Assembly: GCF_006345805.1 (NCBI RefSeq)
Contig: NC_043024.1
Location: 124,001-188,000, forward strand
Reading direction: 5' to 3'
Source: Octopus sinensis
Taxonomy: Eukaryota
DNA length: 64,000 nucleotides
The notes beneath the pieces were generated by a model. It was given only the letters and a program-made list of their open reading frames with translations. It was not told the origin of the DNA and made no database searches. This document shows positions 3,781 to 62,970 of the stretch, piece by piece. Every line of letters begins with the position of its first letter. The stretch's first letter is position 1. Position numbers and translations under genes: made by a program.

Positions 3781-4114
3781 TTTAAATGTTAAAAAATATA
3801 TATATTTGCGTCAATATGTCTGAAGAATATTAGAAATTTAAAAAAAAAAAAATTTTTTCTCTTTTATAATGACATAATTTTTAAAGAAAGACCGGTTCGC
3901 ATTTAGCTTTTCAAATTTCTTGTGACGTTATGTTTGTATAATATATAATATATACACTTGCCCAAACATAACGTCACAAGAAATTTGAAAAGCTAAATGC
4001 GAAACCGGTCTTTCTTTAAAAATTATGTCATTATAAAAGAGAAAAAAAAATTTTTCTTTTAATTCTAATATTCTTCAGACATATTGACGCAAATATATTA
4101 TTTTTTAACATTTA
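3781..4114. repeat. Inverted repeat (about 155-bp arms) flanked by a 130-bp direct repeat (3645-3776 and 4183-4316); putative PLE pLTR fold-back
   Basis: Arms 3781-3936 and 3963-4114 are near-perfect reverse complements; a related copy lies at 4900-5020. Confidence 0.85.
3978..4016 (+). ncRNA. Hammerhead-like motif, U3-A8 variant
   Basis: AAGAAA t TTGAAAA GC-taaat-GC GAAA CCGG TC TTTCTT: stem I AAGAAA/TTTCTT, palindromic stem III, GUC site. One extra T precedes the core. Confidence 0.5.
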
Positions 4115-4323
4115 AGCCTTCTGTCGTTTTTTCACTCTTTACTATTTTATATATATATATATATATATATATATATATATATTATCTTTTGATTTCAGAC
4201 CCATTGCACAGCCGCACTTTGGGCCAGTATCTTCTGCCATAGTGCTGGGTCGACTAATGCTTGACTGGATATCTGGTAGGCGGAAACCGTGTAAAACTCC
4301 TTGGGTTAATGTATATATGTTTA

Positions 4324-4510
4324 TACGAGAGGGGCTGAAACGTTCCTGGCATTAAGGGTATCGCAAAAGGCTCAACTTTCCAAGTTCTTTTACAGTTCTT
4401 TTAGTGAAGGACCACTACAATAATTGAATCTGAGAGAGGAATATGTTGAATAAAATCATTATTAACTGATCCTCCTGTATATTTTTACCCAAGGTCAGGA
4501 ACTTTTCAAC
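4324..4510. mobile_element. Tc1/mariner-type MITE
   Basis: TACGAGAGGGGCTGAAACGTTCCTGG ... TCAGGAACTTTTCAAC imperfect terminal inverted repeats; TA at the left end. Confidence 0.6.
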
Positions 4511-58096: not shown

Positions 58097-61000
58097 TACA
58101 CACGTACACATGCATGCACACATATGTGTACACACACACACACACACACCACACACACACACGCATACTGGTTTCAAACTTTGGTACAAGGCCAGTAGTT
58201 TTATGGGAGTGTGGATAGTCAATTGCATTGACCCCAGCACCCAACTGGTACATATTTTATTGTTCCCACAAGGACGAAAAGCAGTCAACCAAGATGGAGC
58301 ATTCAAATCCAATCCAATATGTACGTATATTTTTTACATTTACACACAGATAAACATGCCTCCCACCCACCACATGCATGCATGTGCACAAACACACACA
58401 CACACACACAAGCCATGTTCAGAGGTGCCATCAGAATGAGATTAGCATCTAGGCTGAAATATATCAGGTTTCAGTTATAAACACCCTTCTGTTTATTACA
58501 GTCCTCCAGACCATAAAACAGGAATTTCAGTGGTTGCCAATGGAAACTCCTGTACATCAATAACTAAATTATCATAAGTGAATCTCTCAAAGATTCAGTG
58601 GAGAAATTCCAAACCTTGAAGCCATAATTAGAACCAAGAGGCTTGTAAAATAAACCTAGTAAAGACTGAAGTTTTGAGGAATTGGAAAAAAGCTCATGTT
58701 GAACTGCCATGAAGCATGGCAGTTAGCACACATGCGTCATACAATCTACCTTTCACTCTGAGCGAGAGACCCTTTGTCGCCAGTAGGGGAAGAAGCTTCC
58801 TAAACTTTACCCAGGCTATTCTTATTCTAGTGGTAACACTCTCTGAGCATCCACCCCTGCTACTGACTTGGTCACCTAGGTAGCAGAAACTATCAACTAC
58901 TTCTAGTTTCTCCTATATATATATATATATATATATATATATTATATAGCGCTCACTCACATTAGCTAAAATATTTGACTTAACACTTGATACTTGATCA
59001 ATGCATTCAGCATTCCATTGCCAAGATAATAAAATAAGGAATGGCACTGGAAGAAGGATGACTGAAATAATCAGCATTTATGATGGACTTTGATAACTCC
59101 TCACTTGGCTAATGAGAGTTTATAACACTACATTTCAATCTAGTCTTTACACTGGGCTAAAGTCTGGTGTTACTGTAGCTTATATTGTGTATTCTTGTCC
59201 CGTAAGTAGAATTTGAGCAAAAATGGAATGTTAAAATAAATACTGGTTTGATATGATTGGTTAACATCGTCGACAGTAGCAGTCTAGCATGGCCATAGTC
59301 CAGTGATCGAAATCAGTTAAAAGAATAAAGAAGCCATCTATACATTCCGATACTTTCCTCATATATCAAAGCTGAAATCATCAGACACAGAACTGACAAG
59401 TTAAGAGGAAAATGGCTGCCAGGTATATTAACGCAGCACGTAGCATGACAAAGTGTTTGTAAGAGAAGAGTTGAAAGAACAGAATAAATGATGACAGTCA
59501 CTGTTAATAAAAGCAGTTTTTACTGGTGTAATGAATGTAGGAGAACATTATTCAATCTTCTGTTACTTTATTTAACCCTTTTGATACTAACTTGCCTGAC
59601 ACTGGCTCTAGGTCTATGGTGGTAACTTCCTGTTTAAAATGTTCTAAAACCTTTCATTGGAATTTCAGGATAATTTATGTTTCAAACACTATTTTATAAG
59701 TGGCAAAGATGTTTTACGGAATTGTACATAATCTTTGAAAATTAACTGAAACAAAAGCAGTCTGTCTCAATAGAAATATGGTAACAAAAGCATTAGAATT
59801 TTTGATCTGAATCTCCTTGAGACTGCAACCTCATTCTATGGATACAAACTCCCTGTTTTAAAGCAACTTAAATATTAACCTTCTCCCATCAAAGCTTCAC
59901 ATTCATTTCTGTTCCAAAATACAGACTTAATAATTTGTTTAGGTTCTCTCTACAGACTTTCTATAGAAATTATAACCAATATTGATTTGTTATGACATTT
60001 TGTATGTCCTAATGAAGCTTAATGGAAACAACAATCTGTAGAGATAAACTTAGCAAGTGGCTTAATAGCACTGCTAACACAGTAGAACACTGCCAACTTA
60101 CAAATCATTTAATATACTTTGTATAAATGAAATATGGTGTCCCCACAAGTCATTAATTATACTTATTGTCAAAGTTATTTTAAGTTCTTTATTCATTTCA
60201 AGTAAAACAGAGGCAGTGTATTTCAACAGAAATCTGGTAACAAAAGAGTTAAGGTGATCTAAATTAAAATTCATTTCAAGTAAAACAGAGGCAGTGTATT
60301 TCAACAGAAATCTGGTAACAAAAGAGTTAAGGTGATCTAAATTAAAATTTTCTCTTAAAATTTCATGTTCATTAATGTTCCAAGCACAGAATTCATAATG
60401 TCAAAGTTATTTTGCTAAATTGTTCGTTATTTACAAAATTTATAGAAACCAAGGCAGTTGTTGTATTTCAACAGAAACACAGCAATGAGATTGTGAATCC
60501 TGTTGATAGCAACCAGCCTGAAGCGGTTTCTAGTTCTATGATTGTTTTAGTCATGAGACTGTCACCCTGCTGGAATGCTGGCTTAGTGAAGTGGTTTTTA
60601 ACTGGGGTCCATATAAGGCTTTCGAAGGTCACCACCTCATCCCATGTCTTCCTGGGTCTACCTCTACCACAGATCCCCTCGACAGTTAAAGATCGGCATT
60701 TCTTTACACAGCTGCCCTGTCCTCGTCCATATGCATCACATGACCATACCAGCACAGTCTTCTCTCTTGCACTTGTGTCTGTTTCCCATCACTGCTTGAC
60801 AACTGGTGTTGGTCTGTTTATGTCCCTGTAACTTAACAGGTCACCAAAAGAGTCTGATAGAATAAGTACCAGGCTTAAAATTCTTCAAGGCGGTGTCCAG
60901 TATTCCCATGATCTAATGGCGGAAACAACTAAAAGATAAAAGATATATGTATGTATGTATGTGCGTATGTATGCATGTATGTATATACATATGTATATAT

Positions 61001-62396
61001 GTATGTATGTACATATGTATATATGTATGCGTGTGTGTGTGTGTGTGTGTGTTGTGTGTGTGTATTTGTGCATATATATGTCTTTCTGTTTGTCCTCTTC
61101 ATCCAAACGGTTGACATAATTTAGTCATGCCATAACTTAGTAGTTTGGTAATCTCCCTTCCCCCCTCCGTACAATAAGCCCCAGACCTTTGAACAAACAC
61201 TAGGATCCATTTTTCTTTTTTTACTAAACCCCCTCAAGGTGGTACTCCAGCATGGCCGCAGTCCACTTACTGAAACAAGCAAAAGGTTAAACCATAAAAG
61301 TTAGAAGCTAAAAGCAAAAAGAAAAACAATCAGACCTATTGTGTATCCGTATTGCAGATGATGCAGACTTGAGAGCAACTGTGACTGGCAGGTGTGCTCT
61401 GCATCAGTGCATCCCACTAGTACATGCTGCTATCATGTCCTGCACGAATGCACTGCAATGTTGTATGCTACAGCAATGTTGCACACCATAAATTGCATTA
61501 ATGCAATTTATCATTATGTGAAGGTGATCAATAGTTTTGTTCAGAGAATATTCAAAAATGACAGCAGAGTGGATGTTTTATCTGCACACTTGCTTCTGTA
61601 TGTGTGTTCCTGTTTATGATTCTATATGTAAGTATGCACGTGCATATATATGTATGTGTGTATATGAATCTAGTAGTATGTACATATGTATGTTTCTGTA
61701 TGTATGTATGTATGCATGCATGTATATATGTATATGTATATGCCTATGTGTATATATATGAATCTAGAAATGTGTATGTATGTATGTGCATTTATGTATG
61801 AATATATGTGTATATGAATCTAGAAGTGAGTATGTATGTATATGTGTATGCTTTTATGTTCCTGTATGCATGTATGTTTGTAATGCATGTTTATGTGTAC
61901 ATGCATGTATGTATGTATATATGTGTGTATGTGTTTGTGTTTCTGTATGTATACATGTATGTATGTATGAATGTATGCCTGTATAGTGTATGCATTTATA
62001 CTTTGTATGTATGTATGTATGTATGATCATCATTTAACAACATATATTTATAAGTGTGTATGTATTTATATTTCTCTATATGTTTGTGTGTGTACGTATA
62101 TCTGAGTATAGCTCCTTCTGCGTCTGTGTGTTCGTGCATGAGCTTGTAGCATGCAAATTTATGGCTTTTTTGCTGCAGATAATACAAGCATTTATACAGC
62201 ATAATCATAGAGACGCAGGCACTTATAACACATGTGCGAATGGCCTTTCATTCATATTGGGAACATGTGTGTATGAATGTATGCCTGTACCATATTCATC
62301 TGAATCTATATATTTAGATTCAGATGAATATGGTACTTAAGTTGAAGCACCAGCATTTAGTATGGTATTATCCATACAATTTCAAAATAAGGTGAT

Positions 62397-62970
62397 TAAA
62401 ATCAAAATAAGCAACAGGATATCCAGAGGTAATGCAGTACGATCGTTTCACGCAACTCCATTTAATTGAACAATGCAACCATCATATCAATTTTCAGTTG
62501 CAAAAAGACATAGAATTTAATTAAATTAAAACAGATGGACACATTAGTATAATTTTACCTAAAATCTCCAAGAAGTTAAGGAGATAGACAAAGAACATGC
62601 TGCCTTCACTTAAGCTACTAAGGTATCAGGAAGAAAAACTTGTTACAGATTTTGCTTGTCACTGTTTTATGGGGTCAGTTTTAATTTATAGACTAGTTTT
62701 ATCAAATCCTTGTATATCTAAGGCCGATAGAACAAGGGGCAGTGTCTGTTAGGGTAAGAGCTGAGGGAATCGACAGAAATCATAGTGGGTATAGTCATAA
62801 AAAACTATCAAGATTTATTTGAAGCAATATCATGAGATTTGGTAAAGGAAAACTTAAATCAAGATGTTAGCTGACAATTATCAATGGTCTGCTAGTGGCC
62901 GACCCTCTTAACATCTTGATTTACATGAATCGATCGTACTGCATTACCTCTGGATATCCTTGTTGCTTAT
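62397..62970. mobile_element. PLE-like element (same family as 30982-31195) with defective HHR at 62434-62501 (-) and a short inverted terminal copy
   Basis: AAGCAAC(A)AGGATATCCAGAGGTAATGCAGTACGATCG at the left; its reverse complement at 62930-62970 runs into (TA)n. Confidence 0.75.

Follow-up and report, generated by a model that had tools for sequence, protein, structure and literature searches.

A stretch of 64,000 nucleotides of Octopus sinensis (NCBI RefSeq assembly GCF_006345805.1, contig NC_043024.1, positions 124,001 to 188,000 of the forward strand), hereafter the window, holds ten hammerhead ribozyme motifs that are likely 5'-truncated pseudo-long terminal repeat (pLTR) stubs of several families of Penelope-like elements (PLEs) and mostly inert as ribozymes. 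Two of these motifs belong to the arms of a single foldback insertion at 49,720-52,950, whose inner arms carry a dense A-to-G load on one strand, probably the work of ADAR on a hairpin RNA that was afterwards reverse-transcribed and inserted into the germline. The two readings are held jointly with high confidence. As a single case the edited foldback is well supported; its mechanism is known and its inherited setting is new. It preserves, naturally and in inherited DNA, a record of A-to-I editing moving from RNA to DNA, in an animal group that edits heavily. Positions are those of the window, and other genomic loci are denoted by L numbers.

A Probably RNA-Edited Foldback

The DNA between the motifs at 50146 and 52452, used as a query, is itself palindromic, and its right half matches its relatives at only about 70%; a sequence-only reading of the window had taken the two sites as two motifs and missed the edited foldback. 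In the comparison of arm with arm, 228 mismatches (160 T/C and 68 G/A) fit an A>G change on the minus strand and 15 the opposite one (P 5e-50). Against family copies, 227 of the 523 adenosines of the inner arms are changed A>G on the minus strand (61/191 in the left arm and 166/332 in the right), and other substitutions total 39 (24 left, 15 right). Adenosines after G are changed in 2 of 44 cases and the others in 224 of 461 (P 1e-9), those before G in 29 of 50 versus 196 of 457; this neighbour pattern fits the rule described for the context of adenosines edited by ADAR (PMC5850803). The changes are confined to 50579-52028; in the outer arms, where both hammerheads lie, 6 of 488 aligned columns differ.

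The changed sequence is DNA-encoded and not an artefact. At least half of the foldback's sequence words are contained in each of six listed sequencing runs (four studies, three organism labels), and three of the four runs examined (run kinds recorded as "DNA?" or unknown) give one contig that spans both the tip and the junction, with 0, 2 and 11 other letters. None of the runs listed with these words is an RNA run, which carries no information on expression.

All eight left-arm edits of the outer zone recur in the right arm; at the same sites 70 of 86 other family copies have none of the changes, 15 have one and 1 has two. Two independently edited RNAs would share all eight with a chance of 0.0002-0.004 (per-site rates of 0.35-0.5) and, since independent edits would so rarely coincide, the inverted arm would have as its template the same RNA, or the first cDNA made on it. 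Only one end bears the tail, which fits two start sites (PMC11167929).

Alternative Explanations of the Edits

Several points weigh against the reading of the foldback as an RNA-edited copy. Strand-biased editing is found in 1 of 134 foldback alignments (from 94 of 280 loci, overlaps included), so that there is one strong case, and the foldback is the sole flagged copy among 65 long alignments of its family, A2, which include 58 other distinct copies; the survey sample amounts to about 1 Mb and is biased to easily aligned copies. The unedited parent hairpin was not found, the tip pattern matching this locus only; the origin by editing is read from the DNA sequence itself; and the assembly itself may derive from the sample of one of the four runs.

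The strongest rival accepts the edited RNA as real and ascribes the eight shared edits to later gene conversion or to edits already fixed in the parent, either of which could produce them and would leave them uninformative on the origin of the inverted arm. The outer arms are adjacent and about 99% identical, two A>G changes are private to the right arm, and the comparison covered 86 of at least 141 family motifs, all of which this rival can use; however, the shared tract starts just beyond the junction with the 18-nt overlap (52028/52029), six non-editing differences persist between the outer arms, and the parental pattern occurs in none of the 86 copies sampled. This explanation is rather unlikely.

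An origin of the A>G load on DNA is improbable, whether by a process that resembles repeat-induced point mutation or targets TpA, by deamination of cDNA within an RNA:DNA hybrid or by a burst of reverse transcriptase (RT) errors. In vitro, the DNA of hybrids can be a substrate of ADARs (PMC12925331), but hybrid editing or RT error should extend through the pLTR, whereas the changes are limited to the part that an RNA could pair; they all lie on one strand across both arms, and the junction scar is on the side predicted for an RNA read on the minus strand. Since AA contexts are changed too (94/193), the process is not specific for TpA.

An assembly or sequencing artefact, to which poorly assembling long palindromes and a nearby 1.63-kb duplication that may be such an error would point, is practically dismissed by the presence of the changed sequence in contigs of 4/4 runs from four studies at flat depth, two of them with allelic differences.

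Proposed Formation of the Foldback

In the route proposed for the edited copy, the RNA would correspond to the minus strand, with the antisense arm, the tip and the sense arm followed by the pLTR and the tail at its 3' end, and would have been transcribed from a parental head-to-head copy. About 750 bp of the hairpin would have been paired and edited, leaving the 3' pLTR with its hammerhead unpaired; because only this length paired, the transcript would have begun inside the inverted arm of the parent. Priming at the tail (left end) would then have let a PLE reverse transcriptase copy the uncleaved hammerhead and both edited arms, up to a halt at 52028. The same molecule would also have given rise to the outer inverted arm, through a second round of priming on the RNA, at the start site closer by, or through copying of the first cDNA folded back on itself; the arm would then have been attached with an overlap of 18 nt. 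The two private changes and the absent right tail lean towards a second pass of reverse transcription, the numbers being small.

The origin of the inverted pLTR has been ascribed to self-priming on an antisense template, a proposal left open by its authors (PMC3846280), and the steps of PLE replication after first-strand synthesis were left unvalidated in PMC11167929. The edited strand of the octopus copy, unlike the antisense template of the former proposal, ends in a sense pLTR; as the edits label one RNA molecule, they offer a barcode test of how, and from which strand, the head-to-head ends of PLEs arise. A broader interpretation can be put forward only tentatively and is possible rather than probable: the edit boundary would map an inward-firing promoter in the inverted pLTR, ADAR-edited PLE hairpin RNAs would recurrently re-enter the germline, the edits would be barcodes showing that the inverted 5' arm comes from the same sense-ended RNA, and some active masters (L046 and the 3' region of the L113 family) may carry edited tracts. 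If re-entry were recurrent, RNA editing would write heritable sequence.

Further Candidates for Edited Tracts

A second candidate for an edited tract is L046:2983-3338, with sense-strand A>G changes in the 3' region of a Hydra-type element, partly repeated at 5821-6023. It shows 33 A>G in 270 columns against L003, with at most 3 changes of any other type, and 29 A>G against L007, and after G 1 of 16 is changed; a paired arm was not seen at this locus. It is the one patch retained among 17 further A>G or T>C patches flagged in 16 loci, the other 16 being TA/TG microsatellite misalignments. Misalignments also account for five A2-family copies with raised T>C, and a pair of short interspersed elements (SINEs) in L240 (25 vs 3, with 8 transversions) was judged not to be edited.

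The 3' region of an abundant young Hydra family (L113:4500-5510, L041:3160-3670) has inverted and direct duplicates with an A>G or T>C bias that several loci share; these tracts are possibly old edited relics carried by a master element. A collapsed-alphabet self-alignment of L113 was set aside due to its too low complexity. Further foldbacks of the window, lacking both a valid hammerhead and strand-biased changes, are located at 23437-23837, 30064-30370, 41249-41494, 42295-42499 and 56819-58098, and some of them may be other PLE-type insertions.

Hammerhead Motifs and Their Families

The ten motifs listed by the sequence-only reading are all present at their coordinates and on their strands, in a sequence that is AT-rich and filled with microsatellites. 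A type-I descriptor (core, stem I of at least 4 bp, stem II of at least 3 bp, palindromic stem III and UH) finds 5 sites in the window (5491, 33618, 35508, 37143 and 54586), whereas dinucleotide shuffles, 100 local and 100 global, give a mean of 0.01 and a maximum of 1; in its relaxed form it finds 7 sites against 0.10-0.12; the motif density is thus well above that of shuffled sequence, the comparison by which the earlier claim could have failed. The sites at 31020, 62434 and 3978 escape the descriptor and yet are members of large families, as family B (31020, 62434) has 1,068 pattern matches and family F (3978) 117, with controls at 0 in both cases; these and all other pattern counts were taken over the whole 2.72-Gb genome.

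Counted as insertions, the ten motifs come to eight, from seven repeat families, because 50146 and 52452 are the arms of one foldback and 35508 and 37143 lie within one tandem duplication. The core CUGANGA / GAAA / UH or a known covariant is present in nine of them (seven with CUGANGA, one with CCGACGA and one with the U3-A8 covariant), and that of 62434 is damaged. Stem III is palindromic (CGATCG, CAGCTG, ACGT, CCGG) or a CpG-decayed form of a palindrome whose intact version is present in family copies, as had been described. The pairing of stems I and II holds for families A, B, C, D, E and F and fails for stem I of A2. The description of 3978 and 62434 as variant or defective is right for the latter; the former is not defective, its core covariant being family-wide and identical in all 30 family F copies listed. 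The count of at least six families is borne out by the seven found, which are neither all unrelated nor all non-coding: 5491 (A) and 50146/52452 (A2) have the 3' half, the downstream sequence and the tail in common. Most copies of C, D and E have both an additional base behind position 9 and G-C as their first pair, and A, A2 and B have neither; family F has the G10.1-C11.1 pair without the extra base.

Rfam gives no hammerhead at the gathering score in the window, and none among the best 150 of 248 matches at E<=1. Other candidates were discarded: no core precedes the GAAACGTT sites at 7050 and 14339, and stem III is invalid for CTGATGAG at 56890/58031 and for CTGAAGAG at 23587/23687.

Relation to Penelope-like Elements

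The assignment of the motifs to PLE pLTRs, already made from the sequence, proved right and is established for three families (A, C and F) through RT/GIY-YIG reading frames elsewhere in the genome; as these families adjoin PLE frames, the hammerheads are known biology. In L107 a 762-aa frame is immediately preceded by a family A hammerhead of the 5491 type, and hammerheads of a sister family flank a full unit of 5.6 kb in L113 and a tandem in L046. The frames of L107, L108 and L113 share DKT, RWK (as RIKWK), YRDD, a CxCX5C linker, a C-terminal GIY-YIG without CCHH and a (TA)n target; by eye, these protein motifs match Hydra-1_Obim, an octopus Hydra-clade PLE with a hammerhead already published (PMC8557442, supplement). 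The Atlas neighbours of the PLE frames carry GIY-YIG and HTH_animal. Family F lies downstream of a Neptune-type frame (L251, L262, L263), and a C-x4-C-x2-C linker with a Cys/His pattern, recognised by eye in L253 and L262, fits the Neptune CX2-5CxxC linker and GIY-YIG with CCHH. Family C is downstream of Hydra-like remnants of RT and endonuclease (EN) in L045 and L270. A2 is tied to PLEs by the shared 3' end and tail only, its interior matching no PLE frame.

PLE hallmarks among the copies are the head-to-head pairing, the TA targets and the tail, which is optional (66 ends have it and 107 do not, overlapping loci included), and most copies are short 3' stubs. A PLE origin of the whole set is made less secure by families B, D and E, for which no linked reading frame was found, by the PLE frames themselves, which have no RT match in Pfam and none in PDB, and by the names of the clades (Hydra, Neptune), which rest on motifs because they are not tree-based. 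Pfam searches of six-frame and three-frame translations beside the motifs gave no match.

Insertions in the Window

The insertions and the parts of the edited foldback are collected in Table 1.

Table 1. Hammerhead-bearing insertions and parts of the edited foldback in the window.
Feature	Position	Strand	Remarks
Foldback holding the 3978 hammerhead	3782-4115		Short
Family F hammerhead	3978..4016	+	U3-A8 core covariant, CCGG stem III; pLTR of a Neptune-type PLE
Family A hammerhead	5491..5533	+	CpG-decayed stem III; pLTR of a Hydra-clade PLE
Family B hammerhead	31018..31107	-	Long stem II, decayed stem III; no linked reading frame
Family C hammerhead	33618..33665	+	CAGCTG; relatives downstream of Hydra-like RT/EN remnants
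Family D copy	35359..35552	+	tRNA-like head 35359-35431, AAT repeat, hammerhead 35508-35552
Second family D copy	36994..37188	+	Inside the 1.63-kb tandem duplication
A2 foldback insertion	49720..52950	.	In TA repeat; non-coding family A2; hairpin tip ~51335
PLE tail of the A2 foldback	~49720-49790		Left end only
A2 hammerhead, left arm	50146..50242	-	Broken stem I, unedited
Left arm, edited part	50579..51319	-	72 A>G on the minus strand
Right arm, edited part	51353..52028	-	148 T>C on plus (A>G on minus) to 52019
Edited 18-nt piece ending the right edited arm	52011-52028		Repeated unedited at 52029-52046
Outer right arm zone	52054..52116	+	8 A>G mirroring left-arm edits at 50579-50641, plus 2 private A>G
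A2 hammerhead, right arm	52452..52548	+	Unedited
Family E hammerhead	54586..54620	-	CCGACGA core (common in the family), AACGTT; no linked reading frame
Family B copy	62432..62502	-	Core damaged, deletion in stem II

The 5491 hammerhead sits in a short foldback with a tail at the left end only. In the A2 motifs stem I is reduced to 2 bp and a U-U sits at the base of stem II, features common to the A2 family, whose hammerhead 5' half has 141 exact copies genome-wide. A2 (L123, L141-L230), non-coding and 1.3 kb long, derives from a PLE and has multiplied to at least 141 motifs; its spread with a broken stem I and an intact 3' half suggests, from these sequence features, that cleavage is dispensable for it.

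The two family D copies lie in a tandem duplication (34146-35811 and 35768-37449) of 1.63 kb, 98.6% identical, which takes in unrelated DNA and may be either recent or an assembly error. The tRNA-like head of family D has A- and B-box-like motifs by eye, ARAGORN making no call, and is found in 6 of 9 copies examined; the family is also present in L054, L059 and L062, head-to-head copies occur, and family D accounts for much of the first 100 listed among the 22,061 matches to the GAAACGTT pattern. Family D is likely a SINE that would be driven by RNA polymerase III and mobilised by PLEs; no paper on a tRNA-headed hammerhead SINE of this kind was found among the literature titles listed.

Abundance in the Genome

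The pattern CTGANGA-N10-35-GAAACRRYYGTA has 7,523 matches genome-wide (control 26) and CYGANGA-N8-30-GAAACGTT has 22,061 (control 1,063); together with B, A2 and F, and minus the controls, they amount to about 29,800 motifs with an intact core, one per ~91 kb, a lower bound because decayed copies escape the patterns. The two main patterns give 0.67 expected matches per 64 kb, and the window holds 5, or 4 with the duplication taken once (P about 0.005); it is about 7 times denser in motifs than the genome average, and two flanking 10-kb stretches have 0 matches to both patterns. One motif per 6-7 kb, extrapolated earlier to the whole genome, is hence a local value only. The related expectation of a very large, probably unannotated system holds as to its size and its absence from Rfam, but systems of this kind are known. 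Metazoan genomes are described as holding minimal hammerheads widely and in massive numbers (PMC4209133), with about 2,000 plus 1,300 in Schistosoma and 9,000 in Xenopus (PMC4209133); more than 6,000 are reported for a coral, and for axolotl as many as 120,000 (PMC7229834), and these counts are of the same order as that of octopus. The census by itself is a useful annotation of about 30,000 motifs missed by Rfam, and nothing beyond.

Activity on Host RNA

The motifs probably do not cut host RNA to much extent, judging from their arrangement. With copies that stand alone or head-to-head, a transcript contains just one ribozyme in the sense orientation; in vitro, no cleavage was seen for a lone minimal motif (PMC4209133), and the hammerhead of an Anolis PLE cleaved only with its protein, was dispensable for insertion and gave no read ends at the cut site (PMC11167929). 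The cleavage of intronic pre-mRNA and the production of circular RNAs, suggested before, find no support in copies of this arrangement, given that monomers are inactive in published assays. An active host-level ribozyme system performing either function is very unlikely: the approximately 29,800 intact cores, the covariation of the stems between families and the possibility that 35508 and 37143, on the same strand and 1.63 kb apart, pair as a dimer would speak for it, but most copies are solitary or head-to-head, several in the window are decayed, and no short tandem arrays surround the motifs among the 150 of 177 tandem repeats listed. Short tandem monomers each with a hammerhead, a trait of retrozymes, were not encountered in the window, where the sole same-strand pair is due to the 1.63-kb duplication with its unrelated DNA.

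Comparison with Known Systems

Clustered changes of this type are described for L1-made pseudogene insertions in cultured cells, 3 of 235 of which have clustered T>C in inverted Alus (PMC11702581), and for A-to-G hypermutated avian retroviruses with nearly 50% of A changed in an inverted repeat (cited in PMC12925331). As in these cases, an edited double-stranded RNA would have been fixed by reverse transcription, the changes are limited to an inverted repeat and their density is similar; unlike them, the octopus foldback is natural, inherited and PLE-made, its duplex is the element's own foldback, and the edits extend into a copied outer arm, marking its template. Editing of repeats in cephalopod RNA is reported (PMC9068888), and no inherited, natural, edited PLE copy was found in the literature searched, most subscription papers lying outside it.

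The motifs resemble the minimal hammerheads of PMC4209133 in the core, the palindromic stem III, the short stem I, the many families per genome, the mostly solitary or opposite-strand arrangement and the U3-A8 covariant, reported there in Schistosoma. They differ from them in a count that exceeds the 2,000-9,000 given there, in the lack of the G10.1-C11.1 pair in A, A2 and B, in 6-nt palindromes and in the spread of A2 with a broken stem I. The octopus elements share with the Hydra-clade PLEs described in PMC8557442 DKT, an RWK-like motif, YRDD, CxCX5C, GIY-YIG without CCHH, (TA)n and a hammerhead near the 3' end; the families and hammerheads of the window, in contrast, differ from Hydra-1_Obim as given in that source, and the L113 unit exceeds the usual length of less than 3 kb.

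Non-LTR retrozymes (PMC7229834; bioRxiv 10.64898/2026.07.22.740005) are likewise non-autonomous PLE-derived units with type-I hammerheads, and A2 is retrozyme-like in the 1.3-kb tandem that it forms in L123. Unlike retrozymes, the copies in the window are dispersed stubs and do not form short multimeric arrays with canonical hammerheads; the word "octopus" is absent from the main text of the preprint (bioRxiv 10.64898/2026.07.22.740005).

Other Features of the Window and the Contig

A tRNA-Gln(TTG) gene is located at 28757-28830 (+), and an open frame of 145 aa at 45057-45494 (-) has a predicted single membrane span and Atlas look-alikes among small membrane proteins, weak evidence on which it is perhaps a host exon. 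Mobile element remnants comprise what we take, by likeness, to be a Mariner-like transposase at 55089-55553 (+) and a non-LTR RT at 55707-56069 (-) (Pfam RVT_1, E 0.0017). A 186-nt tandem of a dispersed SINE-like repeat occupies 1033-1509, and an assembly gap of 100 N lies at 22673-22772. On the same contig, L125:158-1210 (+) holds an intronless frame of 351 aa that is presumably actin-like.

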